Shown here: one piece after another, positions 1 through 48,400 of the stretch
How positions within the stretch are numbered: the stretch's first letter is position 1
How the letters are laid out: the number at the start of each line of letters is the position of its first letter
NCBI GenBank assembly: GCA_964444705.1
Contig: CAYUHX010000002.1
Location: 22,869 to 86,868 of the forward strand
Source of the DNA: an uncultured Gammaproteobacteria bacterium
GTDB lineage: Bacteria > Patescibacteriota > Patescibacteriia > Magasanikbacterales > GWA2-37-8
Direction of reading: 5' to 3'
Length of the DNA stretch: 64,000 nt
Program-made: the position numbers and the translations under genes
The notes under the pieces: generated by a model
What the model was told of the DNA's origin: nothing
The model's input: only the letters and a program-made list of their open reading frames with translations
The model's database searches: none

Positions 1-254
1 CGGGGGCGATGCGAGGAATTGGCTGGGCTATTTTATATTTTGATCCAAAAGGGGATCGTTATTTTAACTGTTGGGTGAATGAACATGATATGGGTCACCT
101 CGCCGGCTGTGTACCACTTTTAGTGATGGATGTTTTTGAACACGCTTTTATGCTTGATTATGGCACTAAGCGCGCCGATTATATCCAAAGTTTTGTAAAA
201 GCTATTGATTGGCAGAAAGTAGATGAGCGCCGGAGTGTGGTGTCTGCTGCGTAG
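1..254 (+). CDS. sodA: Fe/Mn superoxide dismutase, C-terminal part (5' end lies outside the window)
   Basis: Translation ...DVFEHAFMLDYGTKRADYIQSFVKAIDWQKV matches the conserved Fe/Mn-SOD C-terminal domain (DVWEHAYYL.Y.N.R..Y). The ORF runs from base 1. Confidence 0.8.
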   Translation, partial: GAMRGIGWAILYFDPKGDRYFNCWVNEHDMGHLAGCVPLLVMDVFEHAFMLDYGTKRADYIQSFVKAIDWQKVDERRSVVSAA

Positions 255-261
255 ACTCAGC

Positions 262-591
262 ATGATTGAGACGTGTGTGAAATTATTTTTCCCCAAAACC
301 ATTTTGAGTGATCCTGATTTTGCACTTCGACGGGCAGGATATGGTTTTGTTGTTGATCGACACAGTCGGCAGGTAAAAAGTTATGTGCATCGTCTTGACC
401 GAGATTCATACCCACGGTTTCATGTGTATGTAGAAGACGCGGGTGAAAAGTGGTCGCTCAATCTGCATCTTGATCAACGACCGTCAGTATATGAAGGCGC
501 GACTGCACATTCTGGAGAATATGATGGTGCGGTGGTGGAACGTGAAGCGGCGCGTATCACTCATGTGCTCGAGAAAAAAAACTCTGATTAA
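262..591 (+). CDS. hypothetical protein
   Basis: Open frame downstream of sodA (MIETCVKLFFPK...). No recognisable motif. The start is uncertain. Confidence 0.35.
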   Translation: MIETCVKLFFPKTILSDPDFALRRAGYGFVVDRHSRQVKSYVHRLDRDSYPRFHVYVEDAGEKWSLNLHLDQRPSVYEGATAHSGEYDGAVVEREAARITHVLEKKNSD

Positions 592-2649: not shown

Positions 2650-3156
2650 TCACCGTGAGATCGTGAAGTTCACGGTGAAAGGGTCGTCCCGTTTTGCTGC
2701 CTCACCCAGGTGGAAGAGGAGGTTTAAGAAGTTTTTGCGGTTATCTGGTATTTGTTGATACCAGACCAGGAATTTTTGGACGCTGTAGACATCCAGCCCA
2801 CTAGGGAAGAAAATGGTAAAGACCACGTTCGTGCCGTCCCGGAAGCGGACGGTGAATGTACTGCCATCTTCCAGGCGGAAGATGGGGTTCCACCAATAGC
2901 GTCCAGGGGGAATCGCCCAGACGATGTTGTAAGAAAGCTGCCACCAGCTTTCTCCCGGCTGGACGACCTGGTGGTTTTTGACCGCCCGATGCACGCTGTA
3001 GGCGACTAGCACCACGGCGGCAGTGCCCCACCAGGTGATGAGGCCAGAGATCGTGAGCAGGAACAGCCCAAGACCGCCGAGCACCAGGGCCGGCAGGAGA
3101 CGGTTTTTTGGTGCCTTTGACCAGATCGTAAAATCGTGGGGAGGGAGAAACGTCAT
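2650..3156 (-). CDS. GC-rich membrane-anchored hypothetical protein (likely horizontally acquired)
   Basis: 168 aa with N-terminal TM helices. Local GC is about 55-58% versus about 40% in the flanks. GAGGTG lies 7 nt upstream of the ATG. Confidence 0.45.
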   Translation of the reverse strand: MTFLPPHDFTIWSKAPKNRLLPALVLGGLGLFLLTISGLITWWGTAAVVLVAYSVHRAVKNHQVVQPGESWWQLSYNIVWAIPPGRYWWNPIFRLEDGSTFTVRFRDGTNVVFTIFFPSGLDVYSVQKFLVWYQQIPDNRKNFLNLLFHLGEAAKRDDPFTVNFTISR

Positions 3157-3222: not shown

Positions 3223-3867
3223 CTAGGCTAAATTAAGAAAGGAGGTTTTGGTCGCAACAAACTCAAGTAAAGCCGCCACTGTGCGCCCTTCGCTGATTTC
3301 TCCATGGGCGCATTTATCTAAAATTTCAGTAAAGGTAAACCACTTGCCTTGGTGAATGTCTTCACCTTCTTCATGAAGTTTATTCGTGGCGCTGCCGCAT
3401 ATCTCTTCGGCCAGGATGTAGTACAAATCCCATTCGACGGTGGCACCACATTCTTTTTTGGCAAAAAAGCGTAGTTGTGTGGCTTCAAGCTGGGCTTCTT
3501 CGCGCAATTCTTTGGCCGCTGCCGCCAGGATCATAGCTTCGGGCACCGCTTGGGTAAGGTAGGGGCGATAGTCATTAAAACTATCGACGACTTTTCCTCC
3601 GGGTAAGCGCCAGTCCAAAACGTTATTTCTTTCTAACCGAGCCTCTTGTTGCAAATAAATAGTTTTATTTTGTACCGCAATAATTCGGGTGCCAGGTGCG
3701 CGGACAAATTTTTCAAACACTTTGGCTATATAACCCTTACCTTCATCAACCAGCACTGGAAATTGTACAATTGCCCCAATGCGCCCTTCGCTTAAAATGG
3801 TCGGCGCGCCATTAGGGATAATTTTTGGTTCGTCAGGAGTGCGGATTCGAACAACATTCATTGTCAT
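3223..3867 (-). CDS. NUDIX-like hydrolase (degenerate Nudix box)
   Basis: LPGGKVV...KELREEAQLEA resembles the Nudix box (GX5EX7REUXEEXGU) with substitutions. Confidence 0.5.
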   Translation of the reverse strand: MTMNVVRIRTPDEPKIIPNGAPTILSEGRIGAIVQFPVLVDEGKGYIAKVFEKFVRAPGTRIIAVQNKTIYLQQEARLERNNVLDWRLPGGKVVDSFNDYRPYLTQAVPEAMILAAAAKELREEAQLEATQLRFFAKKECGATVEWDLYYILAEEICGSATNKLHEEGEDIHQGKWFTFTEILDKCAHGEISEGRTVAALLEFVATKTSFLNLA

Positions 3868-3965
3868 ATTTTTTAAAAAATAATTAAATCATTAGGCTGA
3901 GCAATATTTTGAAATTTTGTGCATAGAGCTATACCCGCGCACCGGTTAAATTACCACTTTCGTAT

Positions 3966-4610
3966 TTACTTGCCGCTGATTCGTTGCACTTCAAATTCTC
4001 CGTTGCTTCGTTTAATGAGACGATAAAAAGCATATACCGTTTGTCCTTCATGTGGAGCGGCCACGCCAAAAATAAAAGGTCGGTCGGATGATAAATTACC
4101 TCGGGTATAATATTCTTCAAAGACGGCCATTGCATCACCATCTGATGGTTGCCAAGGGCGCTGGTGTGCGTCGAGTTCGTGTGTTTCCACCGGATGAGTG
4201 TGCACATCGCCAATGAATTCTAAATTTCTATACTGTGGATACGCCCTTCGTAGTTCCTCGATTGAGCGCTGAATGGCGGCTAAGTTGGGTAATACGTATT
4301 CAACATGCTCGGTATACAGCGCTTCGCCCTGAGCATCTCGAGAGTCATGCGGGTCAACTTGCATTACTGCTTCGATAGTTACATGGACTGAATTTTTTTC
4401 TTGCGGCCGCACTTTTCCTAGAAGTATGGCGTATTTTTCTCGTCGTGCCCTTAGATCACTCGGCGTAACTTCTGGGAGATGCGCACCAACTTTTTCAGTA
4501 AAAGAAAAAGTGACTCGCAAATTTTCATCGAGAAAATCTATCTTTTGCGATGTGGCGTCTCTGGCTTCGGTTGCCGATCCCCTTCTATTAAAACGATCTC
4601 GTGGAGGCAT
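3966..4610 (-). CDS. hypothetical protein with HxH...SDGD metal-binding-like motif (possible JAB/MPN-like)
   Basis: GDVHTHPVETHE...QPSDGD resembles a JAMM-type motif but with non-canonical spacing. Confidence 0.4.
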   Translation of the reverse strand: MPPRDRFNRRGSATEARDATSQKIDFLDENLRVTFSFTEKVGAHLPEVTPSDLRARREKYAILLGKVRPQEKNSVHVTIEAVMQVDPHDSRDAQGEALYTEHVEYVLPNLAAIQRSIEELRRAYPQYRNLEFIGDVHTHPVETHELDAHQRPWQPSDGDAMAVFEEYYTRGNLSSDRPFIFGVAAPHEGQTVYAFYRLIKRSNGEFEVQRISGK

Positions 4611-5261: not shown

Positions 5262-5262
5262 G

Positions 5263-5334
5263 AGCGGGTGAGGGGAGTCGAACCCCTGTCACCAGTTTGG
5301 AAAACTGGGATAATAGCCGTTATATGACACCCGC
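5263..5334 (-). tRNA. tRNA-Gly (anticodon UCC)
   Basis: Reverse complement folds as a cloverleaf. Acceptor GCGGGTG/CACCCGC; D-loop with GG; anticodon stem CCAGT/ACTGG with loop TTTCCAA giving UCC; T-arm AGGGG-TTCGACT-CCCCT; discriminator U. CCA is not encoded. Confidence 0.75.
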
Positions 5335-6179: not shown

Positions 6180-6349
6180 TACCGCGTCGTATGGTTTGAT
6201 ATGAATAGTTGATGGTTCTTTAAAATACTTAAAAGTGTGTGGTGAAGCGAAGAAAGCGCTTGCCCCAGCTGACAAAGGCAGAAATAGTTTGTGTCTTGTT
6301 TAGCTGGAGGCAAAGGCCTCGCAAGCGTTTTCAACCCTGGAGGATCGTC

Positions 6350-6865
6350 ATGAAGCGCAACACGTGTCTGTTCCCCGGTTTCTTCGCCATTGCGGCCGCC
6401 ATCGGCTGCGGCAGTGCCCCTCCTACCGACCAGAACTTCAGCATCCCGGCGCCGGCGGAGTGCGACCAGCGGCAGCTCGAGGTGCGGGGTGACCGCAAGG
6501 TGACTAAGATCGAGTTCCCCGTGCCGAACGCAGGCTCGTACTACGTCGTGCAGAACGGCTACTCCGTCCGGTCCCCCTTCCCGGACGGGTACTACCCCGG
6601 CGTGGATGTGGTCAAGGACAGCTGCGGCAAGCCGGCCGTGAGCATCGACACTAGCGGCGCCTCGGTCTGGGCGAACCCGGGGCAGAAGGTGGGCGCCTGC
6701 CCCAAGGGCGGCGCCCAGCCGAACGGTGGGGCCCAGTGCTACAACTTCGAGGTCGGGCAGGGTGGCGTCATCACGCCGTACCTGGCGCCGCCCACGGACG
6801 AGCAGATCCAGGCGGAGCAGGCGATGGTCGCGGAGATCGCGGCCGAGCAGGCCGCCCAGGAGTAG
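6350..6865 (+). CDS. GC-rich secreted lipoprotein, hypothetical (likely horizontally acquired)
   Basis: MKRNTCLFPGFFAIAAAIGCGS has signal peptide plus lipobox. About 65% GC in an about 40% GC context. GGAGGA SD 7 nt upstream. The track start at 6239 is judged upstream read-through. Confidence 0.55.
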   Translation: MKRNTCLFPGFFAIAAAIGCGSAPPTDQNFSIPAPAECDQRQLEVRGDRKVTKIEFPVPNAGSYYVVQNGYSVRSPFPDGYYPGVDVVKDSCGKPAVSIDTSGASVWANPGQKVGACPKGGAQPNGGAQCYNFEVGQGGVITPYLAPPTDEQIQAEQAMVAEIAAEQAAQE

Positions 6866-17899: not shown

Positions 17900-19129
17900 C
17901 TAGAACTCGGCGGCCGTGCGGCCGATTCCTCGGCAAAGGGGGTCGCGCTGGTCGGTGAATTCATTTATGTTCACCGCCGGGTCCCCGATTTGCGCCCTGA
18001 ACGCGGCCTCGTCGATCAGCAGGTCGCGCGAGCTACACGGTGATACCTTCACCGAGTTGGCATAAGGGTTGTCACCATGGTCCAGAAACAACCCTTCGGT
18101 GGGGAAGCTGATGAGTTCGTGTTCGCACACCCAGATGGGCTGGGTGGGGATGTTGATGCTCTTCAGCAGAGCCACCATAAAGCCCACACTTCCGTGACAG
18201 CCCGCGGTCCAGTGTTGGACCCCTGCGTCTGGATTGTTGGTATCAATAGTACCTTCAATGATTGCGCCCAGCGGTGCGAATCCTGCATACCCCCATACTG
18301 CTAGATGGTTGGTGTATGAGGATGGCCCATAGTAATGCGTCATCATGTGCCGCATCCAATCAATCAGGTTCACAATTGTGCTTAGGCGATTTTCACCGAC
18401 TATTCCCTGGCTCGCAAGCCAGTTGTACAGCGCTCGTGGGGGCGCGTAGGGTGTTTGTGCGCGGTTATCTTTTGTGAAATAAGGTGTGCCTATTTCACTC
18501 GTCCCAACCGTGTAGACTACGGGAGAATATTCGAGCCGCCACCCAATGGCCGCGCTGTCAAACAGTTCTCGGAGTTGTTCGTCGTTGTACCCGGTGATGC
18601 TCCACCCAAGGGTAGTGGAGGTCTCGAGCGCGAGCGAGAAGCCCACTTGGGCAACATAAAGTCGCCACATGTAGGTTTCTTCGAACTCCTTCGCAACTTT
18701 GCAGTTTGGGCAACGATCGCCGTTATTATTGTTCGACGGCCTATCGGTCAGACCATCGGCGATGAAGCCTACAGGCGTTGCTCCACCCCGTAGCCAGTCG
18801 TAGGCGGTTTTGTAGGCGGTTTCGAGGTCCGCCTTTTGGACAGTCGACCATTTGGTGTAGTTTTGTTTTTCGCTATCTGTCGGCGGTGTGTAGGCGTTAA
18901 GAGACGCCTGAGCGTGCTGCCACTTGATGGCCGTTGCCACCTGGGGGTGGTTGGCTAACCACTGCGCCGCGGTTGGTGGTTTGCTTGGAATGATTACTAC
19001 CGGTGGGTCATCCGTGGGTCGTTCGCCCATGTCTGCGACCGATGGTGGCCGCTCTTGATTTGTGGGGCTTGGCCCGCAAGCGGTGGTGCAGAAAAGCCAG
19101 AAAAGAATCAGACCAACGAGACGTTGCAT
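17900..19129 (-). CDS. GC-rich secreted lipoprotein, hypothetical (likely horizontally acquired)
   Basis: MQRLVGLILFWLFCTTACG signal/lipobox. About 60% GC. No recognisable catalytic motif. Confidence 0.5.
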   Translation of the reverse strand: MQRLVGLILFWLFCTTACGPSPTNQERPPSVADMGERPTDDPPVVIIPSKPPTAAQWLANHPQVATAIKWQHAQASLNAYTPPTDSEKQNYTKWSTVQKADLETAYKTAYDWLRGGATPVGFIADGLTDRPSNNNNGDRCPNCKVAKEFEETYMWRLYVAQVGFSLALETSTTLGWSITGYNDEQLRELFDSAAIGWRLEYSPVVYTVGTSEIGTPYFTKDNRAQTPYAPPRALYNWLASQGIVGENRLSTIVNLIDWMRHMMTHYYGPSSYTNHLAVWGYAGFAPLGAIIEGTIDTNNPDAGVQHWTAGCHGSVGFMVALLKSINIPTQPIWVCEHELISFPTEGLFLDHGDNPYANSVKVSPCSSRDLLIDEAAFRAQIGDPAVNINEFTDQRDPLCRGIGRTAAEF

Positions 19130-19345
19130 GGTTTTGATCTCCAAATTTCGGGCTCATGGCCCGGGTAGGGGTGATTTGGGGTGAAGTAATAATGCACCGG
19201 CATCTTAATTGTAAGATAATAATGGTGCGTTATCACGGATAAAAAGAGCCAAGATTTGACACTAGCACAAAAATGAAAAATGTCAAGTCTAAGAAGGTGT
19301 TTTTTATCTTAATTAAGCAAAATAGTGCGTATTTAAAAAAATAAA

Positions 19346-32491: not shown

Positions 32492-32980
32492 ATGTTTCAA
32501 ACGATGCTGAGAGCGGACATTCTTCTTTTGGAAATCGAGGCTGAAGCTGATCCGCGGCGACGGAAGGCACGTGTGCTTTCGCAGCCTGAGGGTGCGGTGC
32601 AGCGCTTGGTCAACGCGCTCGCACCCGGGTCGTACAGTTGCCCACACAGGTTTCGCGGCACTCAGACAATCGCCTGCCTCAACGGCCGGCTCGCGGCGAT
32701 CCTATGGGACGCCGAGGGTGTTCAGGATGGTGTGGTAAAACTAGAAAAAGGTGATGTGCTGGATTTAATCGAGCCGGCGCCCTACCACGCGCTCGTGGCC
32801 TACGACGGCCCGGTGACGATCTTGGAGACGCTGACAGGTCCGTATCGGCTGGAAAACCGCGAGGATTTGCCTGGATTCCCTGTTGAGGTGGGAAAGCCCG
32901 GAGGCGCTTTTGACGAAGAAATTCGTCGGCAGGAAATGCTCAGGGTGTGGGTACAGAAAATCAAGGAATATTCTAGGTAA
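32492..32980 (+). CDS. GC-richer small cupin-like hypothetical protein (possibly WbuC-like)
   Basis: 162 aa with beta-rich composition. Strong SD AAAGGAGAG 6 nt upstream. Local GC about 58%. Confidence 0.4.
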   Translation: MFQTMLRADILLLEIEAEADPRRRKARVLSQPEGAVQRLVNALAPGSYSCPHRFRGTQTIACLNGRLAAILWDAEGVQDGVVKLEKGDVLDLIEPAPYHALVAYDGPVTILETLTGPYRLENREDLPGFPVEVGKPGGAFDEEIRRQEMLRVWVQKIKEYSR

Positions 32981-36486: not shown

Positions 36487-36924
36487 CTATTCGATGGCGG
36501 CGATTTTATCTATCCGGCGTTGATGTCGGCCGCCGTCAAAAGCAGTTTCGAGGAATTTTTTGACAATGGCAATGGCATGTTCTTCTGAAATAACGTCTGC
36601 TGCCAGGCAAAGCACGTTGATGTTGTTGTCACGCCGAGCAAATTCGGCCGCCTCAATGCTGTACCCAAGGCCAGCGCGAATACCTTTTACCTTATTGGCG
36701 GCAATGCAGGTGCCATTGCCCATACTGCAAATGACAATGCCGCGATTTTCTGTTTTTTCGGCTACTTTTTGAGCGAGGGGAATGGCAAAATCGGGATAAT
36801 CATCTTCTTTGTTATATTCTGTTGGGCCAAGGTCAATGGCTGGCTGTTTCGTTTGTTTTTCTAAAAATCGGAGAAGATATTTTTTGAGTTGGTAGCCGCC
36901 GTGATCTGAGGCGAGGTAGAGCAT
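36487..36924 (-). CDS. rpiB: ribose-5-phosphate isomerase B
   Basis: LASDHGGYQLK..., GIVICSMGNGTCIAANKVKGIRA (RpiB/LacAB signature). 145 aa. Confidence 0.85.
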   Translation of the reverse strand: MLYLASDHGGYQLKKYLLRFLEKQTKQPAIDLGPTEYNKEDDYPDFAIPLAQKVAEKTENRGIVICSMGNGTCIAANKVKGIRAGLGYSIEAAEFARRDNNINVLCLAADVISEEHAIAIVKKFLETAFDGGRHQRRIDKIAAIE

Positions 36925-36933
36925 AGGTGTTAT

Positions 36934-37311
36934 TTAAGCTTGGGTATTGAGGTAGGCCTTCAACGCATCTTCAAGTCGACTTGTTTGTGGTGAAAAAAGA
37001 CGTATCCCGTTAACTGTAGTCGTTGGTCCTTCCGCGTGTACTTTTTCGTCCATACTTGGCCAGCTGGCGTTATCTTTAATTTGTTTTAATAGATCGGCTG
37101 CGACACTACCATTTAACTCAGGAAGAGGTATGCCCAGATTATCTATGACTGTTTTTAATTTTTCGATTGGATCAAGTGGGGCGAAATCACCGGTTTGAGA
37201 CATTCTTTCGCTCATAGAGTTTAAATTAGAGTAATTAATAGTTAAATTATAGCTTACTTTAGGGAATTTGTGAATATGTGTGTTACATGACAGAAAACAA
37301 AAACCGCCCAC
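36934..37311 (-). CDS. hypothetical protein
   Basis: 125-aa ORF. An internal Met at MSERMSQ may be the true start. No recognisable motif. Confidence 0.35.
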   Translation of the reverse strand: MGGFCFLSCNTHIHKFPKVSYNLTINYSNLNSMSERMSQTGDFAPLDPIEKLKTVIDNLGIPLPELNGSVAADLLKQIKDNASWPSMDEKVHAEGPTTTVNGIRLFSPQTSRLEDALKAYLNTQA

Positions 37312-37402
37312 GTCTCCTGCGCCGAGCGGCGAGAAATCTCGTCGCCACGCGTAGGGGTGTGGGCGGGGTTTGTGCGTGCGGCAACTTGGTGGGCAGCAGC
37401 CT

Positions 37403-38362
37403 CTATGGGGTTACCTCAAAGCGGTCTCGGGTGGTGGTGCCACGATCAAAGAATACTTCCTTGGCTGTAACCTCCACGTTGCCATTCGGCAAAAATTCAA
37501 CTAGCGCATAGCCGTTGAAGGGGTTTTCCCATCCTTCATGGAAGGCCGCACCGCCGTTGCCCACTATCACATCGCGGTAGTGTCCGCGGACGAGCGTATT
37601 CTTCACATGCTCATATTTGTGATCATGGCCGGCGAAGTACAGAGTGATGTTGTGCCGCTGCAGAATAGCTTTAATTTCCGCTTCGATCCACGGAGTGGTT
37701 CCGTGGGAGTCGAAGTACTGATGGCGGAGCACGAACGTGTATTCCGTGGGGATGGCCATCACGGTTTTGAGCCACTTGGCCTGAAGACGATCTTTGTCGC
37801 CCTTCCAGACGTCCGTGGCGATCGAGACGAATTTCGCCCGTCGGCCCTGTTCGTCCTCGATGAGGAACCACCAGTAGTATGGCGCCTCCTCGCCAAGCAT
37901 CCGCATTACCTGGAGACAGGGGAATTCGTGATTGCCGAGCGTGGTATGGATGGGGGCCTTGAGGTGGGCGCGGGCGGCGAGAAGGATGTTGACCTGGGCG
38001 GCGATGGTGTCGGCCGGGCATCCTCGATCAACGTACACTTGGTCGCCGGTGTCCCCAACAACCACCGCCTCATCCTCGTCGATGGCCTTGAAAATCGCTT
38101 CCACGACCTTTGCTGGATAGGAATTGATTTCATTTTTTTTTGGCGGCCGATGATCGCCCGTGATGGCGAACCGCGTCCTTGCTAGCCGTTTGACCTTGAT
38201 GGTCGGCTTTTGATGGAGGGGTGCCATCCCCAGGATGGCCGAGGCAGTGTGGGGCACGATGTCAGTGGCCAGCTGGGTCGCCGTTTCCTGGTTGCAGGCC
38301 GTGAGGCAGCTGAGGATGACGATGATTCCGAAAATTTTCACGTTGCCACTGTTCATACGCAT
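37403..38362 (-). CDS. secreted (lipoprotein) calcineurin-like metallophosphoesterase, GC-rich
   Basis: Signal/lipobox ILSCLTAC. Metallophosphoesterase motifs GDTGDQ, GNHEF and AGHDHKYEH. About 60% GC. A strong terminator hairpin lies 3' of the gene on the minus strand (37304..37365 + TTTTTGTTTTC). Confidence 0.65.
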   Translation of the reverse strand: MRMNSGNVKIFGIIVILSCLTACNQETATQLATDIVPHTASAILGMAPLHQKPTIKVKRLARTRFAITGDHRPPKKNEINSYPAKVVEAIFKAIDEDEAVVVGDTGDQVYVDRGCPADTIAAQVNILLAARAHLKAPIHTTLGNHEFPCLQVMRMLGEEAPYYWWFLIEDEQGRRAKFVSIATDVWKGDKDRLQAKWLKTVMAIPTEYTFVLRHQYFDSHGTTPWIEAEIKAILQRHNITLYFAGHDHKYEHVKNTLVRGHYRDVIVGNGGAAFHEGWENPFNGYALVEFLPNGNVEVTAKEVFFDRGTTTRDRFEVTP

Positions 38363-38550
38363 GGGCTACTCCTGTGCGAGTGGTTTTAAAGGGCGAATGT
38401 TCCCAACTGAGAGGAACAGATGACTCTATCAAATACAAGGCTGTTCAGCAAGTTTTAAATTTAAAAAACCAGATGCAGCCTTTCAACTCAAATTGCATTG
38501 AGACGAAGGGCTAGGGCATCTGGTTTTGTGGCGGAAAGATGTGCTGGACT

Positions 38551-39075
38551 TCAGTTGCAGCCGGCCGGAGTGCAACCACTCGGGCAGTCTTGGGTAGCTG
38601 CGGCGCAGTAGCCTTCGGGCAGGCACTTGCCCGTGGCGTACATCATCACGCCGCCGCCGCTGTAGTTGACGCACTTCTTCACCGTGCCGCTCAGCGAGCA
38701 GCAATCAAGATCGGATCGGCAGGCATTGCACCCTCCGATGACTGCAGTCTCTGGCGGTACGCACAGTTTGGTGCCGTCTTTTTGGGTGTGGCAGTTGGAC
38801 CATCTCCAGCAGCTGGTCACGAAGGGGCACAGCGCCCCTTCCGCCATTCCCTCGCACCGCCGAACCGTGTTCGGTTCGTACGGCCCGGTGCAGAGACCGC
38901 CAAGGTCGATGGTCGGTTGGGACGTCATCAGATCGGCCGGGCTGCCGCCGTCCATGATCGACATGAGGTCGTCGTTGGCAGGGGTGATTCTTGCCATCGA
39001 TCCGTCTGTCGACGGGTTGCAGGCGATGGTGAGAGCAGTCAGTGCTACATAAAGAGACAAACTCGGAGTGCGCAT
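38551..39075 (-). CDS. cysteine-rich secreted lipoprotein, hypothetical, GC-rich
   Basis: MRTPSLSLYVALTALTIAC signal/lipobox. About 20 Cys in about 150 mature residues (CNAC, DCCS, CPSGC). About 63% GC. Confidence 0.5.
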   Translation of the reverse strand: MRTPSLSLYVALTALTIACNPSTDGSMARITPANDDLMSIMDGGSPADLMTSQPTIDLGGLCTGPYEPNTVRRCEGMAEGALCPFVTSCWRWSNCHTQKDGTKLCVPPETAVIGGCNACRSDLDCCSLSGTVKKCVNYSGGGVMMYATGKCLPEGYCAAATQDCPSGCTPAGCN

Positions 39076-39255
39076 TGTGTTCCTTTCGTCGCGCGACGCC
39101 CCTATGGCGCCCGACCCTTTTTCTCGGGTCTAAAAAATGCCTCCCCACACGAGAGACATTGTTTGGATCAGAGATAAGAACGAACGCGTGAATTTAACCC
39201 AAGGAATATCATGAAATACTTAATTAGTCAATTAATATAGGGTGAATATTTCGAT

Positions 39256-40989
39256 TTATTTTTTTTCAGAATTACCACCGTGCGAGCCAGGTGTTCCTTC
39301 ATTGCCGCTTCTTCGGGTGGGAAAAGCCGCTCGTAATTTTGGAACTTCTTTTTTACGAGTAAGTTCGCCCGGAGCTTTTATTTCTCCGGTTTTAAAATAA
39401 TGAACGGCTCGGCCGCGACTTTCCTCATTAAAACCAGTATTAGTAGCATTGGGTTCTAAAAACAGCGCCTGTTTTTCGGGTGGTTCGGAGAAATAGGGTG
39501 CGAGCAGCTCCAGTACTCGTTCTACATTCACTGGTTCGCCGCCGTAATCTTCTAACCCCGCCAGCATTGCTTTGGCTTTTGTTTTAAATTCAGCAAAGCG
39601 TGCAGGTAAACTTCCTCGTACCTCGGCTGAGTCGGTAAAAATAATGGTGAGCGGTTTTCCGAGGCGATCAAGTTGTGAAATTTCTTTTGCCACTTCTTTA
39701 GGAGTAGTAAAAAAACTTTCATCAATTGCTACTAATCCTTTGGTAGAGCGTTCAATTTGCGTGCCCAAGCGTTCCGACCAGTTGGCCACGCCGCCGTCAA
39801 TCGACACATTCAGGCGAGCGAGCGCCAATACCGCGGGTGAAACTGTGGCGGCTGCTCCGGGTTTAGGTTCGGCGCGGGTAAGACGTTGTTGGTCGATTGC
39901 CATTTGCATGCCAAGTTGCTCGGAAAGCAAGGCGCACAGTTCAAGCATGGGGCCAGCCTTGGTGCTGCGGTATGATACAAAGAAAAAATCGAGACCGTTT
40001 TCTTTTAAACGATTGCGCAACTCTTCGCGTAGGCGGGCAACCTTGCCCAAAAATTTTTTGACCACGGCTTGATCGGGAATTGAACGGATATCTGCTGCCA
40101 ATTGTATAATTTCATCAGCCAGCTGTTTCCACGATCCTTTCATTTCGGCTGTGAGTTCTTTAAGAGCAGTCAAACCTTCAGTTGGAGAAAGTGTTTCAGT
40201 TGTAGTTGCGCCCGCTTTTGCTGCTTTCACTTCATCAAAAGTAAAATCATCATCATCATTGAGCACGCGGCCACGGCGAATAAATTCTTGGATAATAGTT
40301 TTTCCTTCTTGTGAGAAAGAGGTAGTGCCATCGGTGGTAATGCGACACGCATTAAGCTTTCTTAGTTTAAGCACTGCATCACTGCCTTGAGTTTTAGCCA
40401 ACTGAGAAAAATAGCCTTCTTTGCCCGGTTTATCGTTGAATTTAGCGAGCTCGGCTTGGGGCCCAAACCATACCATCATAATGGGTTTTTTAGCCGCCTG
40501 CAGGGCCTCCATTTTTTCAATCACCGAATTAAATTCAGCCGGGTTGGTAAAAAATTCAGGTGTAATAAATACGGCCGCATGTGAGCAGGAAGCAATGTCT
40601 GTCGTCGTGCCCACTGCTTCTGCCGAAGTGTGAAAACGATTGCCCAGTTTGGCTGCATTTTTTAATTCGGCATCAAGGCCAGCTTTGAGTTCATTAAAAC
40701 CAACGCGTGCAGACCCCTGTTCGTCGGCAAGGGCGACGCTCGTTTCGTCTAAAGACAGATATAGTCGCGTTGGTCGCCACACCTCTTTATTTTCTCCAAG
40801 GCATACTCTGAGAGCCTCACGTAGCTGTGCCAGGCCACGCAATCGTCTGCTTCTTTCACTGGAATCAAGAAGGGGTGGGGCGTCTTTTAATGCTTCACAT
40901 TTTTGCTGCAAAGCATCAAGTTTTCGATCAATGGCCTCGCGTTGCATTTGTTCGGCCGCCGCCGCACGAGAAGATTCAAAATCGGTCAT
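39256..40989 (-). CDS. protein with two tandem TIR-like domains, each preceded by a coiled-coil segment
   Basis: Internal repeat at aa about 75-180 and aa about 334-456. Unit B: DFFFVSYRS (TIR betaA-like DvFISY) ... GLVAIDESFFTTPKEVAKEI ... KPLTIIFTDSAEV (TIR betaD-like IPIFY.VDPS.V). Unit A: AVFITPEFFTNPAEF ... KPIMMVWFGPQAEL. Confidence 0.5.
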   Translation of the reverse strand: MTDFESSRAAAAEQMQREAIDRKLDALQQKCEALKDAPPLLDSSERSRRLRGLAQLREALRVCLGENKEVWRPTRLYLSLDETSVALADEQGSARVGFNELKAGLDAELKNAAKLGNRFHTSAEAVGTTTDIASCSHAAVFITPEFFTNPAEFNSVIEKMEALQAAKKPIMMVWFGPQAELAKFNDKPGKEGYFSQLAKTQGSDAVLKLRKLNACRITTDGTTSFSQEGKTIIQEFIRRGRVLNDDDDFTFDEVKAAKAGATTTETLSPTEGLTALKELTAEMKGSWKQLADEIIQLAADIRSIPDQAVVKKFLGKVARLREELRNRLKENGLDFFFVSYRSTKAGPMLELCALLSEQLGMQMAIDQQRLTRAEPKPGAAATVSPAVLALARLNVSIDGGVANWSERLGTQIERSTKGLVAIDESFFTTPKEVAKEISQLDRLGKPLTIIFTDSAEVRGSLPARFAEFKTKAKAMLAGLEDYGGEPVNVERVLELLAPYFSEPPEKQALFLEPNATNTGFNEESRGRAVHYFKTGEIKAPGELTRKKEVPKLRAAFPTRRSGNEGTPGSHGGNSEKK

Positions 40990-41224
40990 ACAGGTATAAA
41001 AAATAATTATGGTAGATAGTCAACTACCTTAATACAATCATTCTAAATAATCAATTTGAAAAAACAAAACCCCTATCATTATTGAGAAGGGGTTTCGGAG
41101 CATCAAGTGCTTCTTCAGCCTCTCGTTATTACTACAAAGCGTTTATAGAAATAACGAGTCTGGAGGTTGGAGAGGCGTCGCAGCTCGTCGGTCGTGGACG
41201 GCTGGCCGACCTGGGGCGCTGTCC

Positions 41225-42325
41225 TTAGAGGGCACCGACCCGACGCATAATCTCGATCGCCGCCTTGAGGAGCGCTTCTTCCGTCGCGTTCTGGCGGCGG
41301 TCGTCCAGCCCTTCCTCACCATAAGGACCATGATCCGTCTCGCTCTCAACGTACGCGCTCGCCGCAGGCGTGTGGTCTTCGGGCCAGACGCTGATACCTT
41401 CGAAGCGTTGGTCGCTCCCGAAATCAACCGCCCGGAGCATAAGGACGAGCTCCTCGGCACCGGTTTCCGTCGGGGTGTTATCCATCGCGATGTAGTCGGT
41501 GCTCATGCACCGAACAATCAACGCGGCCCGCTCCCACAGCGACGCAATCTTGGTTGCGGGCGTGTGCTCCGTCACCCGCTCGTAGCGCAGTGGCCTTCCG
41601 CTAAAGTGTGACAGCATCCTCTCGATCATGGTGAGATCGTCCATGGCGTGGTGGAAGAGTACAAGCGGGATCTTGCTCGCCGCGATCTCCGCATCCACCC
41701 GGGTCGCCTCCTTCGCGAGATTGATCTTGTCAGCTCGCACCCCGCCGCGAGTGAGGAGTTTGAAGCCACCGTCCGTTGCTTCCGTATTGATGTTGATACG
41801 ATGCGCATCGGCGTGGGTGGCTGCCAGGTCGGCGGAATCTTTAAGGTTACGTCCCTTGGCGATGCTGATGTAGAACCCCCGTGATGCCCGGGCCGCGACA
41901 TCGTCATATTCCGCTACCTCGTTTCCGAGAAGGAACATGAGACCGTCATTTCCCTCCACCAAGGGCGCTAAGGATGCTGCCCCCCAACACACGTTGGCGA
42001 AGATGCCGAGAACGCTGGGGAATTTTCGGACCAGTCGGGTGAGGTGCGCGGGGACGAGGATGAACGGTTCCCCATCCTCAGTCGTCAGGATGATTTCCGC
42101 TTCATTGCCGTGGCCGATGAAGTGGATGATGTGGGGGCTGAAATCCGTCAGAGCATCGGACAAGGCTTCGAGCGTGCCGTCCGCACAGAAGCGGAATTCA
42201 AACTCGTTCGTTCGTCCAGCCTTTTCAAGGGCGCTGATGATTCTTTCCATCTCCCCCTGGCCCACCTTGTTTGCAGTCTTTGGAATGGCCTCGAACACTA
42301 ATACGCGAATCGGCGGCATGTTCAC
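41225..42325 (-). CDS. CHAT/caspase-like (peptidase C14-fold) domain protein with C-terminal domain of unknown function
   Basis: HIIHFIGHGNE (CHAT HfaGHG motif, His72) and LGIFANVCWGAAS (catalytic Cys113) give the caspase His-Cys dyad spacing. C-terminal 200 aa unassigned. About 62% GC. Confidence 0.55.
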   Translation of the reverse strand: MNMPPIRVLVFEAIPKTANKVGQGEMERIISALEKAGRTNEFEFRFCADGTLEALSDALTDFSPHIIHFIGHGNEAEIILTTEDGEPFILVPAHLTRLVRKFPSVLGIFANVCWGAASLAPLVEGNDGLMFLLGNEVAEYDDVAARASRGFYISIAKGRNLKDSADLAATHADAHRININTEATDGGFKLLTRGGVRADKINLAKEATRVDAEIAASKIPLVLFHHAMDDLTMIERMLSHFSGRPLRYERVTEHTPATKIASLWERAALIVRCMSTDYIAMDNTPTETGAEELVLMLRAVDFGSDQRFEGISVWPEDHTPAASAYVESETDHGPYGEEGLDDRRQNATEEALLKAAIEIMRRVGAL

Positions 42326-42608
42326 CTCTCTGTTGGGATTTCAGAACTGCGGTCTTTGGCGTCCATTACCTGGAGCCTTCCGCAATAGCAACAGGGTTCT
42401 GTATAAACCCTGCTTTTATCGCGAAAGGTGTCAGGCTAGGTTTAGCCCAAGTTCACATTTTTATTTTTAAATTATGAATGAACGGTCGCAGATGTAATCC
42501 ATTCCACATGGCTCATTGATTTTTATGAGCAATCGGGAATGGAGGGGGCCGGCCGGGTGCAGAAGGCACCGGCAGCGAAGAGGCCCCACGTCCATGTGTT
42601 CTTTGTTC

Positions 42609-43652
42609 TTAGGCGGGCTGCGCAGCCGTCGGGGCCGGGCCGGCCCCGACCTGAGCCGTGGACTCGCTCTTGAACCAGGCGCCGGCGTTCGCGAGAAGCG
42701 CCTTCTCGACCAGTTCCACGAGCGCCTTGAGGTCGCTGCCCTCGTCCACCGAGATGGCGAGCGGCTCCAGCACGTTGAGGGTCTGGAGGCAGAGGGCGAG
42801 CCGAAGCTCGTCCTCCGGGCTCTGCCGCGCGGCCGAAGCGACGCCGACCAACCATCCGAGACCCGCGAGCGGCAGCACCGTCTCGAGCACCCCCAGCCCA
42901 CCGTTCAGCCACCAGACGCGGCTGGTGAGCATGGCCAGCTCCTCCTGCTTCTTGCGCAGGTAGGAGAGCTGGCCCTTGTCCACGTCCGTCAGCCTCTCGG
43001 TGACGTAGGTGGCCGGGGTCAGCAGCGCCGTTTTGAGGTTTTTCTCGATGTCAGCCATCTCATCAGAGCTGAGCTTGTCCAGCGCGCAGGTGGGGATGGC
43101 CGCTCCCACCTTGCCGATGAATTCCTCGCGGGTGAGGAGGCTGGCCCTGAACGTGAAGAGGAGGCTCTTGATCTGCTCGGACGCGACCCTGCACAGCTGG
43201 TGCACGCGTCCGTAGCGCGCCACCCCGCCCCGCAGCAGCCCCACCAGAGCAGCCAGTGCTGAAGCGCTGACCGCCGGGTGCCAGGCGTGCCAGGGGATGA
43301 GGTGGAAGCCGCAGGCCGCGATGAGCATGGTGAGAGGCAGGAGCACAATCGCTCGGCGTCGCCAACGCACGGGCTTCTCAAGCGGCGTCAGCCCCACCAC
43401 GAGGGTGAGAAGCAGGGCGCCGATGAGCGTCTCGTTGGGTAGCCAGTTCTTGGTCGCCAAGACGGCCGCCAGCACCACGATGGGCGCCAGCACCTTGACG
43501 AGGCGGTTGAGGCGCTGGGCCATGGCGTCAGCGCGACTCGCAGTCTTGCTGCACTCGCGCTGCTTGGTCGCCGCGTGCCGCAGCGCTTGGACATTGCCAG
43601 TTGTCGGGGTGTACGGTTTCGTCGCAGGAGTCGTCGGGTCGTCCATCTGCAC
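42609..43652 (-). CDS. multi-pass membrane protein (4 N-terminal TM + 1-2 C-terminal TM), hypothetical effector
   Basis: Hydrophobic helices LVKVLAPIVVLAAVLA, LIGALLLTLVVGL, AIVLLPLTMLIAACGF and WWLNGGLGVLETVLPLAGLGWLVGVASAA. About 65% GC. An AT-rich promoter region lies upstream. Confidence 0.45.
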   Translation of the reverse strand: MQMDDPTTPATKPYTPTTGNVQALRHAATKQRECSKTASRADAMAQRLNRLVKVLAPIVVLAAVLATKNWLPNETLIGALLLTLVVGLTPLEKPVRWRRRAIVLLPLTMLIAACGFHLIPWHAWHPAVSASALAALVGLLRGGVARYGRVHQLCRVASEQIKSLLFTFRASLLTREEFIGKVGAAIPTCALDKLSSDEMADIEKNLKTALLTPATYVTERLTDVDKGQLSYLRKKQEELAMLTSRVWWLNGGLGVLETVLPLAGLGWLVGVASAARQSPEDELRLALCLQTLNVLEPLAISVDEGSDLKALVELVEKALLANAGAWFKSESTAQVGAGPAPTAAQPA

Positions 43653-43870
43653 CTCTTTCAGGGGTGTGGGGTTACAGGAAAAACAAATCTCTAAATAACC
43701 ATCTTATAAAGAAACACATGGATTGTAATGAGCAAAATCAGTAGGAATCTGAAAATGATGTACTACCAAACCTTTTTCAAATTCTTAAGCTGAATTTTAA
43801 GTGAGAGAGAGTTTTTAGAGAAGAAAAATTAAGTGAATGAAGAAGAAAAAAATTGAAAATTTCTGGGGGG

Positions 43871-43916
43871 CCTGATCGCCGTCGTCTGCGCGTGGGGCAG
43901 GGCGACGGCGATCAGG
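43871..43916. terminator. 14-bp perfect inverted repeat hairpin (terminator between convergent or adjacent island genes)
   Basis: cctgatcgccgtcg-tctgcgcgtggggcaggg-cgacggcgatcagg. Confidence 0.45.
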
Positions 43917-43958
43917 TGGTCTTCTGTACGCGCACGGGGGTGAGATGAGGTAGCGGGC

Positions 43959-44441
43959 CTAGCCGCCGCGGATGCTACCGTCGCGGAGCTGATCGTCCTC
44001 GTCGCGCGAGGGGCGGCCGTTCAGTGGCTCGTCGATGCAGCGCAGGTGCTCGTCCCGGCAGCGGTGGCTGTTGTCCAGCTCGAGGAGCTTGCTCAGCTCG
44101 ATCGCCGGGAAGCTGGACGTCCAGCTCAGCCGCCAGCCGTTGCTGTGCCAGGCGGCGACCACCGCCTTCTCCACCTCGGGGTGGCTCATCAGCTCGATGA
44201 GCTGCTGCGCCTTGTCCCGGTGCAGGTCACCGCCGAGGCCGATGAACATCGACCCTCGGTCCTGGTCCTCCATCTGCATGAAGAAGGTGATGAGCGGGTT
44301 GGCCCGCCGCACCATCTCCTGCACCTCGTGGGCGGTCAGGGGCCGCGGCTTGGGCCGGTGCGCGTCGGGGATGCCGTCCCCGTTCGCGTCGGGGAAGGTG
44401 CTGCCCGGTGAAGTTGTTTCACGATCAGGGTTCCAAGGCAT
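43959..44441 (-). CDS. GC-rich hypothetical protein with DGDGIPD (thrombospondin type-3-like Ca-binding) motif
   Basis: Start chosen at MPWNPD with GGAGGA SD 6 nt upstream. The track ORF extends to 44543. About 65% GC. Confidence 0.4.
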   Translation of the reverse strand: MPWNPDRETTSPGSTFPDANGDGIPDAHRPKPRPLTAHEVQEMVRRANPLITFFMQMEDQDRGSMFIGLGGDLHRDKAQQLIELMSHPEVEKAVVAAWHSNGWRLSWTSSFPAIELSKLLELDNSHRCRDEHLRCIDEPLNGRPSRDEDDQLRDGSIRGG

Positions 44442-44779
44442 GGGTCGTCCTCCAACAGTGCATCGCCGTGGTTTCTCACAACACAAACGCTTGTGGGCGC
44501 TGTGTTCCCTATCGCCGGCGTGCGACAAGGGTAATAAACTCAAAAAAATGTAAGTTTAGTATCCTTGCCACATTTTCGGCGACACTGCGTACAAAAGAGT
44601 TATTTTTGGCTAATTTATCTGTAGTGGATAAAAAAGACACGAAAATAACTATTCATTATAGCATATTTTTACTCGTTTGTCAACGGAACCATGCGGACAA
44701 AATTTTTATATCCTGCACCATTGAATAGTTTAAAAATTATGCTATAGTGGCTAAGTATATACTTATTTTATCTTAATAT

Positions 44780-45388
44780 ATGCCCCGTGAACGAAGTTGG
44801 CCTCCGCAAGAAGGTGACGTAGACAAAAAGAAACCAAAAGAGAAGCCGGCTGAGCAACCTAAACCACCTCGAGAAAGAGCCAAGAAAAAAAATACTATAA
44901 ATGTGTACAGCGCGGATGGTCTGATTGAGGCGGCTGACCCTGGTGTAGCTACCTCAGCGGAGGAGGACGCATCCACATCTTCTGCCGCTGAAACTTCTCC
45001 AGACATTAAACTCACTCCTGAAACCGCGGAAGCGGGGCTTACAAGAGCGCTCGAATTAATACGTGCTGCACTAGAAAGATTATGTAAAGACTCGGGTAAT
45101 CGTGCCCGTTTAGAAACAAAGCTTCCCATTCCTTTAAGTAAAGGTATGGGGGAGTTACGCGGTCTTTTACTTGAGCTCACCCGTCTGTGGAAGGAAAAAA
45201 AATTAATGGAGCGATTGAATCAGGTGGCCCATCGCGGGCATATTGATTTGTGTGAACCAGATTTTGAATCTAGTTTTCCTAGCCTTGGGGCGCGATGGTT
45301 TGAAAAACCTGAAGAAGTAGACCCTGTGGATGCCATGAAAGAGGGGTCACCGGCGGGTGGGGCATCCGGCGGAAGATCGTGGGTATAA
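44780..45388 (+). CDS. hypothetical protein (Lys/Pro-rich N-terminus), uncertain
   Basis: 202-aa ORF overlapping the ileS start. An antisense ORF also exists. No recognisable motif. Confidence 0.3.
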   Translation: MPRERSWPPQEGDVDKKKPKEKPAEQPKPPRERAKKKNTINVYSADGLIEAADPGVATSAEEDASTSSAAETSPDIKLTPETAEAGLTRALELIRAALERLCKDSGNRARLETKLPIPLSKGMGELRGLLLELTRLWKEKKLMERLNQVAHRGHIDLCEPDFESSFPSLGARWFEKPEEVDPVDAMKEGSPAGGASGGRSWV

Positions 45389-45405: not shown

Positions 45406-48400
45406 ATGCTCTATAATGCGAATCAGGAAGAAAAAGAAATTTTAAACTGGTGGGAAAAACATGCGGTCTTCGAGCGTTCGGTGTCTGAACGCCCGGACGA
45501 CAAACCGTATGTGTTTTATGACGGCCCACCATTTGCCACCGGCTTGCCGCATTATGGGCATATTTTAAGTTCGGTGATTAAAGATGTGGTGCCACGCTAT
45601 TTCACCATGAAAGGCTATCGTGTGCCGCGCCGTTGGGGCTGGGATTGTCATGGGCTTCCCATTGAAAGCTTGGTGGAAAAAGAGTTGCAAATTACTGGCG
45701 GCAAAAAACAAATTGAGGAAGAACTAGGAGTAGAAAAATTCAATGAAGCTTGCCGTTCGAAAGTGCTGACGTATACCAAAGATTGGAAAACCATGGTCGA
45801 TCGCATTGGCCGCTGGGTGGAGTTTGATAATGCCTACAAAACCATGGATGCCACATATATGGAAAGTGTGTGGTGGGCGCTCAAAACAATTTGGGACAAA
45901 CAATTGATTTATGAAGGGAGAAAAGTGCTCATGTATTGTCCGCGCTGCGAAACACCAGTATCAAAAGCCGAGATCGCGATGGATAATAGTTATAAAGACG
46001 TGACGGAAGAATCGGCCACCGTAAAATTTAAATTAAAGGAACAAGGAACAAGGAACAAGGAACAATTTAAGGATATTAATGGACCGATTTTTGTGCTTGC
46101 GTGGACCACGACACCGTGGACATTGCCGGGGAATGTGGCGCTCGCGGTTGGGGCTGAGATTGAGTATGTGCTGCTGAAGGAACAAGGAGCAGTGAACAAG
46201 GAACGGCCAGCTCAAGAATCATCGGCATATTATGTAGTCGCGAAAGAACGTTTAGGAGTTGTTTTTAAAGATAAGTCGTACGAGATCGTAAAAGAATTTA
46301 AAGGTTCAGATTTAGCTGGTCTTGAATACGAACCACTGTTCAATTTGTCAGCTGTGAGTGCGACGGGCAAGAAAGCGCACTACATTGCCGCGGCTGATTT
46401 TGTGACGACCACTGATGGCACGGGTGTGGTGCACACGGCGGTGATTTATGGTGAAGATGATTATCAGCTGGGCGTAAAATTAGATTTACCGATGGTGCCG
46501 ATGCTTGATGCCAAGGGGCATTTCAATGAAGCGGCACCTGAATTAGTGCGAGGTGAATATTTTAAGAAAGCAGAAAAATTAATTAAAAATAATTTGGAAG
46601 AGCGCGGATTACTTTTTAAGCGTGAACAGTTTACACACTCGTATCCGCATTGTTGGCGCTGTGACACGGCGCTTATTTACAACGCCATCTCAGCCTGGTT
46701 TATTGATATTCAAAAAATTAAGCCACGCCTCCTTGCGCTGAATGAAAAAATCAATTGGTATCCAGAGCATTTGAAGCACGGCCGCTTTTTGAACATTCTT
46801 GAAACTGCGCCAGATTGGAATATTTCACGCAACCGGTATTGGGCCACACCATTGCCGTTTTGGAAGTGTAGTGAAGGAAAAAGGAAAAATGAAAAAGGAG
46901 AAAGTGTCCCATGCACGAATGTGGTGTGTGTGGGTAGTGTGGCGGACTTGAAAGCCAAGGCGCTTAATTTTGCGGAAGTATTTTCTTCAGACAAGGTGGA
47001 AGAGATTGATTTGCACAAGCATGTTGTGGATAAAATAAAGCTGAAGTGTGACGCGTGTGGTGGTGCGATGGAACGAATTCCGGAGGTGATTGATTGTTGG
47101 GTGGAGTCGGGTTCGATGCCGTTTGCCGAGTGGCATTATCCGTTTGAAAATAAAGAGGTATTTCAACAGCGTTTTCCGGGGCAATATATTGCCGAGTATA
47201 TTGCGCAAACCCGCGCCTGGTTTTATTACATGCACGTGATGGCTGTGCTTTTGTTTGATAATGTTAGTTTTGAAAACTGCGTCACCACAGGCAATGTGTT
47301 GAACGAAAAAGGCGAAAAGCTTTCTAAGTCAAAGAAAAATTATCCTGACCCGTGGGGGCTGATTGAAACCCACGGTGTTGATGCATTGCGTTTTTATCTC
47401 ATGACGAGTCCAGTGATGCAGGCCGATGATTTATTTTTCAGTGATCGTGAAGTAAAAGAAGCGTACAACAAAGTGCTCAACCTTTTGTGGAATGTGGTTG
47501 AGTTTTATCTGCTGTATGCGGGTGAATATGATGGCACCACACAAATGCACCACAGCACCAACTTGCTTGATAAATGGATTGTGGCCAAAGCCAACCTTTT
47601 GGTAAAAGAAGTGACTGAACACATGGATCATTATGATACGGTTAAAGCCGGTCGCCCAATTAAAGATTTTGTTGATGAGCTTTCTACGTGGTATTTGCGC
47701 CGCAGCCGTGAACGTTTGAAAGGTGAAGACCAGCAAGGCAAGCAGCACGCACTCGCTACACTTCATCATGTGCTACTCGTGCTGGCAAAAGTCATGGCAC
47801 CATTCACTCCATTCATGGCGGAAAAAATCTATCAAGAATTAAGGAACAAGGAGCAAGGAACAAGGAGTGTTTTTAAAGAAAGTGTCCACCTTGAGGATTG
47901 GCCTCATTTCCATGAAGAGCATCATCATGAAAAAGTATTAGAAGAAATGATTGCTGTACGAAAGATTGTAGAAATGGGTCTGGCGCTTCGGGCTGAGCAT
48001 AAACTCAAAGTGCGCCAGCCGCTCTCTGAGCTGCGTATCAACAACGACCACTTGCCGCATGAGCTTTTAAATATTGTTGCCGAAGAATTGAATGTAAAAA
48101 AAGTGGAATACGCTGAGTTTGTTGAAGGTGATGAGTGGAAAGAAAAGAAAGATGGTGCGGTGTGTGTGTGGCTTAATACGCTCCTTGATGATACGCTGAA
48201 AGTAGAGGGAGTATTACGTGAAATAATTCGGGCGATTAATCAACTGCGCAAAGAGCAGGGTCTCACTATTCACGATCGGGTGGAGGTGTGGTATGCGGTA
48301 GCTGGTTCACGGTTGGCGGATATTTTTCAGACGCACGCGGCGGAAATTCAAGCCGCCACGCTTGCCAACGAGCTCGCAGCCACAACTCTCTCCACAGAAA

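Follow-up and report, generated by a model that had tools for sequence, protein, structure and literature searches.

Type IV Thoeris consists of a TIR protein together with a caspase-like protease that has an unassigned C-terminal domain (Rousset et al., bioRxiv 10.1101/2024.10.24.620036), and type VII Thoeris combines a TIR protein with the SLATT effector ThsH, with cyclic ADP-ribose (cADPR) as the signal (bioRxiv 10.64898/2025.12.03.692087). SLATT proteins also accompany TIR effectors in conflict systems (eLife 2020, PMC7159879). The present study concerns six genes, here called p1 to p6, that form an island in a block of extra DNA between rpiB (36487-36924) and ileS (45379-), a gap of 8,454 bp, in a 64,000-nucleotide stretch (the window) of contig CAYUHX010000002.1 of assembly GCA_964444705.1. 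Three neighboring genes of this island encode a TIR-like candidate (p3), a CHAT/caspase-like protein (p4), and a probable SLATT-type membrane protein (p5). Because this trio combines the domain logic of types IV and VII Thoeris, the statement of an earlier note on this DNA that the locus matches no named system is out of date; analogy of this kind does not establish membership of p3, p4, and p5 in Thoeris. The same note proposed a single conflict system. We consider it moderately probable that the rpiB–ileS slot instead holds an assortment of independent imports resembling a conflict or defense island, together with the resident gene p3, and not one co-inherited operon.

The case for this reading begins with base composition. 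The guanine-plus-cytosine (GC) content of positions 37300-44560 is 55.7%, compared with 43.9% in the remaining window, which bears out the GC excess that had been described but not the figures attached to it (60-65% in a chromosome of about 40%). Judged against 46 host genes, whose GC content at third codon positions (GC3) has a mean of 0.384 and an SD of 0.046, five of the six genes are foreign, with GC3 values of 0.71 (p1), 0.75 (p2), 0.72 (p4), 0.88 (p5), and 0.85 (p6) and z-scores of 7-11 (7.0 for p1). The 577-aa gene p3, at 0.39 (z = 0.0), is host-like, so the picture of a uniformly GC-rich island holds for five genes and fails for p3. The five values differ from one another and p3 does not depart from the host mean, which argues for independent imports. 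GC3 in the window is bimodal, with host genes at 0.22-0.46 and outliers at 0.61-0.88, and in the open reading frames (ORFs) of the island GC3 exceeds GC1 and GC1 exceeds GC2 on the minus strand, which indicates that these are true coding frames. Between 37300 and 44800 the GC content jumps at ORF boundaries, from 57-68% in the ORFs to 30-49% in the spacers, and such AT-rich, host-like spacers are not expected from bulk import out of a high-GC donor.

The organization of the island points in the same direction. The six ORFs share the minus strand, and their spacers are fairly AT-rich and promoter-like, both as the earlier note had described; the spacers measure 180-306 nt with a GC content of 0.30-0.49, whereas the median distance between co-directional host genes is 13 nt. 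Hairpins occur in four of the five spacers that separate island genes, including those downstream of p2 and p4, the latter at 41122-41158 within the 235-nt spacer between p4 and p3. An intrinsic terminator of p1 (37304..37365, minus strand), a GC-rich stem followed by TTTTTGTTTT, lies 38 nt past the p1 stop codon, and a likely terminator hairpin of p6 (43871..43916, minus strand), with perfect arms of 14 nt (inverted repeat I18), lies 43 nt past the p6 stop codon, between p6 and p5. These last two hairpins had been placed at both ends of the island; both are real, but they are structures at the 3′ ends of p1 and p6, and the second of them is inside the island. Upstream of p6, in a spacer of 30% GC, is a perfect σ70 consensus promoter (44655..44683, minus strand; TTGACA-17-TATAAT with an upstream TG, matching at 12/12 positions). 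Since the spacers are of this length and carry promoter-like sites and hairpins, the island genes look like separate transcription units rather than one operon.

The slot itself varies throughout the lineage. The ileS gene that flanks the island is 60-69% identical to ileS of metagenome-assembled genomes (MAGs) of Candidatus Magasanikbacteria, and the gene order ribokinase, two small transmembrane (TM) genes, trxB, rpe, rpiB, ileS is kept in Magasanikbacteria relatives; we therefore assign the window to a chromosome of the Candidate Phyla Radiation (CPR)/Patescibacteria with a background of ~44% GC. The rpiB–ileS gap of 21 syntenic relatives ranges from 121 to 8,766 bp (median 1,456 bp), nine of them carry GC-rich segments inside it, and a scan of related loci found GC-rich patches of 0.4-2.5 kb in 25 of them. 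The cargo is unrelated from genome to genome: it comprises a DUF4407 membrane protein in L027 (7169-9286), an aldehyde dehydrogenase and an aminotransferase, called by reading the sequences, in L022 (6045-9437), two giant surface(-repeat) proteins that are not GC-rich in L013 (1409-9939), and orphans in other relatives. No homolog of an island protein was found in any of 80 related loci. The rpiB–ileS slot is a lineage-wide variable accessory-gene hotspot in Candidatus Magasanikbacteria. With defense islands and integration hotspots it shares a fixed position between core genes and horizontally acquired cargo that varies among relatives. In contrast to these, it lacks an integrase, a tRNA, flanking direct repeats, and any mobile-element gene, and its cargo seems to arrive one gene at a time, set apart by host-like spacers. 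Scans with Pfam, NCBIfam, PADLOC, and PHROGs found no integrase, transposase, or phage family in the island, as had been noted for the first two; no RNA gene was found at the island (the sole tRNA lies at 5262-5334), no flanking direct repeats beyond chance were found around it, and a search of viral contigs returned no relatives of p3 or p4.

Among the imported genes, p4 (41225..42325, minus strand; 366 aa) has the clearest identity. Its CHAT/caspase-like domain (residues 6-175; 41801..42310, minus strand) is followed by a C-terminal half of unassigned fold (residues 186-366; 41228..41770, minus strand). Residues 14-175 match the SAVED-CHAT protein of type III-B CRISPR (Protein Data Bank [PDB] 8tl0_A; phmmer E=9.3e-7), with the His of HFIGHG and the Cys of NxC (NVC in p4) aligned, and the putative dyad, His72 and Cys113, is invariant in an alignment (A2) with three actinobacterial homologs. 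A tblastn search with p4 matched 43 plasmid records (E down to 2e-7), including genes annotated as CHAT, and at least one of these plasmid CHAT matches adjoins restriction-modification and helicase genes. The Pfam CHAT model (PF12770) stays below threshold, matching only residues 30-74 with 16.5 bits where 24 are required, and a word-indexed search of 5.8 billion proteins matched only p4 itself. The AlphaFold2 single-sequence model of p4 has a predicted local distance difference test (pLDDT) score of 35.5, and its Foldseek matches are noise. The 8tl0 match and the aligned dyad agree with the earlier description of a CHAT/caspase-like His-Cys protein, and assignment of the N-terminal ~175 residues to a caspase-like CHAT protease domain is well supported. 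SAVED-CHAT remains the best sequence match of p4, with both motifs conserved; p4, however, lacks the SAVED sensor, carries its CHAT domain N-terminally where SAVED-CHAT carries it C-terminally, and has no CRISPR or cyclase gene among the other island proteins.

The likeness of p4 to the protease of type IV Thoeris, in which the expected outcome is abortive infection via indiscriminate proteolysis, is of a different kind: p4 resembles CHAT proteases in sequence and can be likened to the PsCaspase system by domain logic. Its C-terminal half gave no Pfam match at E<=10, no relation to the p3 family, and no plasmid match, and from its position, by comparison with the type IV caspase, it is a candidate ligand-sensing domain. 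p4 and the putative TIR gene are adjacent and co-oriented, yet they are separated by 235 nt and a hairpin, differ in GC3 (0.72 vs. 0.39), and form no obvious operon. Moreover, p3 is not a short TIR protein but a 577-aa protein of two domains and helical segments, with a TIR_2 score of only 15-17 bits, and a third, SLATT-like gene is present here.

That third gene, p5 (42609..43652, minus strand), encodes a multi-TM protein in which we recognize three SLATT-like units of two TM helices each (~43380-43559, 43149-43361, and 42675-43007); the hydrophobic helix pairs, as read from the sequence, lie at residues ~49-89, 100-143, and 242-273 and are flanked by predicted helices. NCBIfam SLATT_1 matches residues 1-196 with 19.6 bits (E=6.8e-4; cut-off 41), the second unit matches DUF4231 (E=0.019) and SLATT_3 (E=0.045), and the third unit of P0003, a 90%-identical relative, matches Pfam SLATT_1 over the whole profile (E=0.0074). 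Other SLATT-type scores likewise fall short of the curated cut-offs (Pfam SLATT_1, 16.8 bits against 26.3; DUF4231, 15.9 against 24.7), but in each of the three regions the top match or the one after it is to a SLATT-type model (E 7e-4 to 0.05). p5 is thus a probable, if weakly supported, SLATT-type membrane protein, and the small membrane effector proposed in the earlier note has three weak matches in its favor and no score above a curated cut-off. The sharing of a cluster by a SLATT-like membrane protein and a putative TIR gene recalls type VII Thoeris. Unlike in that system, the TIR gene and the SLATT-like gene are not adjacent, p4 separating p5 from p3, and p5 has three tandem sub-threshold units where type VII has a single annotated SLATT domain.

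An independent Logan assembly of a single run (SRR13612670; L001) includes p5 together with the AT-rich spacers on either side of it and the opening bases of p4; the nucleotide identity is 88.9%. Divergence between the two copies of p5 (positions 118-1143 of L001) is mosaic: the rate of synonymous divergence (dS) is 0.02 in codons 1-190 and 0.49 in codons 190-345, where the ratio of nonsynonymous to synonymous divergence (dN/dS) is 0.37. This pattern indicates a recombination breakpoint in the middle of the gene and purifying selection on it.

The resident gene, p3 (39256..40989, minus strand), encodes a lineage-specific protein with a helical, possibly coiled-coil N-terminal region, a first domain (~residues 67-245; 40255..40791, minus strand), a helical linker, and a second domain (~residues 330-505; 39475..40002, minus strand). 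A search of 1.84 billion representatives returned a single full-length homolog, P0008 (611 aa, 43% identity). In both proteins the top Pfam family of domain 2 is TIR_2 (PF13676), at the same profile positions, although with 15.3 bits in p3 (E=0.028) and 17.5 bits in P0008 (E=0.0058) neither reaches the cut-off of 28. Domain 2 has an FxF[VI]SYRST strand and a conserved Glu436, which is invariant in p3 and P0008 and lies near the position expected in TIR domains; it may be catalytic. A profile built from p3 and P0008 retrieved no TIR protein among PDB sequences at E<=10. Domain 1 matches no Pfam family and appears to be a degenerate copy of domain 2, the two sharing a single internal match of 45 residues (residues 130-174 and 424-465, E=0.005). 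The tandem TIR-like domains of the earlier note are thereby reduced, at most, to one divergent TIR_2-like domain and a degenerate copy of it, and a "double TIR" is plausible but unproven. Another apparent relative, the giant protein P0009 (3,875 aa), which residues 215-264 of p3 had retrieved, was rejected: it contains ~12 near-identical repeats of ~233 aa, each with a 47-residue stretch that resembles the p3 linker (30 bits each), and these repeats inflate the summed score.

The MAG most closely related to this genome, GCA_964533715.1, encodes P0008, but not on its ileS contig; its rpiB–ileS gap measures only 507 bp. At its own locus (L085), P0008 is flanked by two non-homologous GC-rich genes, a partial one upstream (12-569, plus strand; GC3 0.95) and one of 322 aa downstream (3290-4258, plus strand; GC3 0.87), and neither p4 nor p5 has a homolog in the 12.7 kb examined around it. 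The downstream gene carries the effector-associated domain EAD1 (Pfam E=2.6e-8, above the gathering cut-off) and N-terminal GHG...MAC motifs that line up, in the same register, with the CHAT dyad, though only at P=0.016; hhalign gives a probability of only 2.9% for a caspase domain in it. Caspase-like peptidase effectors fused to EAD1 have been described (Kaur et al. 2020, PMC7159879). Foreign effector-like genes recur beside p3-family genes in the island and at L085. Because only two members of the p3 family are known, the adjacency of P0008 and the EAD1 gene is a hint and not a statistic.

This neighbor also invites comparison with the EAD-coupled nucleoside triphosphatase (NTPase) conflict systems of multicellular bacteria (Kaur, Burroughs, Iyer and Aravind, PMC7159879). 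The island resembles these in its effector repertoire of caspase-like, TIR, and SLATT proteins, in its high-GC, donor-like composition, and in the rapid swapping of effectors between related genomes, and the neighbor of P0008 adds an EAD1 domain. In contrast, no NTPase core (STAND, MoxR-vWA, or GAP1 GTPase) turned up among the island proteins and no EAD in any protein of the window, and here the genes belong to a reduced CPR symbiont instead of a multicellular host.

Collectively, our observations are consistent with a model in which the slot would hold six separately transcribed genes, p1, p2, p4, p5, and p6 being recent, independent imports from high-GC donors and p3 a resident, lineage-specific protein of two domains, the second resembling TIR_2 at sub-threshold level. 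A caspase-like protease is present in p4 and a SLATT-type protein probably in p5; judging from characterized relatives, they may serve as cell-suicide-type effectors, acting by indiscriminate proteolysis and by membrane breaching. By analogy with Thoeris types IV and VII, a signal derived from nicotinamide adenine dinucleotide (NAD) and produced by p3 might switch them on. A Thoeris-like role in abortive infection is the most likely function of p3, p4, and p5, with the coupling between them conjectural. Several points weigh against this model. The island lacks core components such as a sensor NTPase or a cyclase, none of the TIR and SLATT calls reaches its curated threshold, and PADLOC finds no system, with models from 2023 that are older than type IV Thoeris. 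In addition, p1, p2, and p6 have no link to defense, and the sharp alternation of GC-rich ORFs and AT-rich spacers is not accounted for by simple bulk transfer.

A further extension of this model would make the p3 family a resident, Magasanikbacteria-specific TIR-like sensor with interchangeable captured effectors, CHAT and SLATT-like proteins here and an EAD1 caspase-like protein in the sister genome, and thus an immune hub, modular and Thoeris-like, of an ultra-small CPR symbiont, the effector genes being captured singly and without an integrase into AT-rich, promoter-bearing slots. We regard this proposal as quite unlikely to hold in full.

The alternative that survives best, although we think it somewhat unlikely, is that p3, p4, and p5 are one Thoeris-like system after all, a hybrid of types IV and VII in which p3 would be the TIR sensor and signal generator, and its NAD-derived product would switch on two effectors in parallel, the p4 protease by way of the C-terminal half and the SLATT pore p5. 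The three genes are neighbors in the same orientation, their domain logic fits two validated Thoeris types, the p5–p4 junction is kept in the second assembly, and P0008 stands directly beside a GC-rich, effector-like EAD1 gene. Other observations speak against it. A native p3 with foreign p4 and p5 that also differ from each other (GC3 0.39, 0.72, and 0.88) is not what a co-inherited unit would look like; the spacers of 235-283 nt, mostly with hairpins of their own, speak against an operon; P0008 lies elsewhere in its genome, away from any p4 or p5 homolog in the segment inspected; the TIR call is sub-threshold and concerns one domain only; the EAD1 neighbor scores poorly as a caspase; and two family members make co-occurrence statistics impossible. 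The single conflict system of the earlier note is not supported by this evidence.

A second alternative, which we judge very unlikely, dispenses with phage defense altogether: the imports would be unrelated genes serving an episymbiotic lifestyle, for instance lipoproteins of the surface, a membrane protein, and a protease that is secreted or associated with the membrane, and p3 would be an unrelated protein, structural or regulatory, with its helical, possibly coiled-coil segments. This would suit the lipoprotein signal peptides that p1 and p2 share with several other GC-rich imports, both in the window and in relatives, the surface proteins and metabolic genes in the slot of relatives, and the PADLOC result and sub-threshold TIR and SLATT signals, but p4 has no signal peptide, and its relatives are a CRISPR-associated protease (8tl0) and plasmid-borne CHAT genes. 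The SLATT-type matches recur in three separate regions of p5, whose mosaic, recombining divergence is that expected of a conflict gene, and the neighbor of P0008 bears an effector-associated domain. Finally, assembly or binning could have created chimeras in which the GC-rich segments stem from a co-occurring organism of high GC, a concern raised by the metagenomic source and the mostly orphan cargo proteins; this is extremely unlikely, as host genes lie on both sides in a single contig, the composition changes exactly at ORF boundaries with host-like spacers that carry promoter-like sites and hairpins, the Logan assembly independently reproduces p5 with both its spacers, and many MAGs, obtained in different studies, have patches of this kind, often in the same syntenic position.

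Within the favored reading of independent imports, the remaining three foreign genes may have a different purpose. p1 (37403..38362, minus strand) encodes a calcineurin-like metallophosphoesterase (Pfam Metallophos E=2.7e-12) whose signal peptide is of the lipoprotein type and ends in LTAC, and p2 (38551..39075, minus strand) a Cys-rich protein of 174 aa (17 Cys) that bears a putative lipoprotein signal and is an orphan in Pfam, NCBIfam, PADLOC, and PHROGs; the secreted metallophosphoesterase and Cys-rich lipoprotein that had been predicted are thus both recovered. p6 (43959..44543, minus strand) is a small orphan with one DANGDGIPD motif; its translation may start at Met35, and profile-family, PHROGs, and plasmid searches returned no relatives. 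Since many GC-rich imports in the lineage are lipoproteins, p1, p2, and p6 may instead serve the cell surface of the symbiont.

High GC is neither genome-wide nor confined to the island but scattered over the window. Four GC3 outliers (0.63-0.87) lie elsewhere, at 2650-3156 (minus strand), 6239-6865 (plus strand), 17900-19144 (minus strand), and 32492-32980 (plus strand); all but one, which has a weak DUF6016 match, are Pfam orphans. Lipoprotein-like signal peptides are present on two of them, on p1 and p2, and on several GC-rich genes of relatives, so that surface proteins seem overrepresented among the imports. Outside the slot, GC-rich upp-like (uracil-phosphoribosyltransferase-like) genes are found downstream of ileS in three relatives (L005, 8040-8726; L006, 18315-19136; L023, 20872-21654). 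Their mutual identity is only ~30%, compared with ~65% for ileS, which indicates independent imports rather than inherited orthologs and suggests that the same function was acquired repeatedly.

At the left edge of the slot, outside the GC-rich cargo and upstream of rpiB, is a small ORF with host-like composition (36934..37311, minus strand; GC3 0.32) and no homolog among the 80 related loci. A promoter-like site at 37274..37246 matches at 11/12 positions, and the true start of the ORF is probably an internal Met after it. Judging from the L013 ortholog, which begins MYNANKEE, translation of ileS probably starts with the Met at 45406 (MLYNANQ...), and from this start the 10-nt overlap with ORF 44780-45388 is an artifact of ORF calling. 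An 18-nt inverted repeat at 36917 and 45396 was set aside, as it merely reflects shared Met-Leu-Tyr codons. Several MAGs in the third-party annotation (TPA) section of the European Nucleotide Archive (ENA), L002, L004, L007, L008, L009, and others, are titled "uncultured Gammaproteobacteria bacterium" and have ileS genes 65-69% identical to the one described here; those that extend far enough (L002, L004, and L007) share the ribokinase-to-rpiB synteny with Magasanikbacteria, so that their Gammaproteobacteria titles are evidently wrong.

To our knowledge, CPR/Patescibacteria are usually seen as poor in known defense systems, restriction-modification aside. If our reading is correct, the combination of a caspase-like protease, a SLATT-like pore, and a possible TIR sensor would place Thoeris-type abortive infection in ultra-small episymbionts, and it would add highly divergent, near-orphan versions of the CHAT, SLATT, and TIR domains. 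Furthermore, the occurrence of single high-GC genes between AT-rich, host-like spacers, in a conserved slot, in many Magasanikbacteria, and without an integrase points to an uncharacterized route of gene capture. Such a route would concern naturally competent symbionts, and the composition of the donor DNA could hint at the identity of their hosts.

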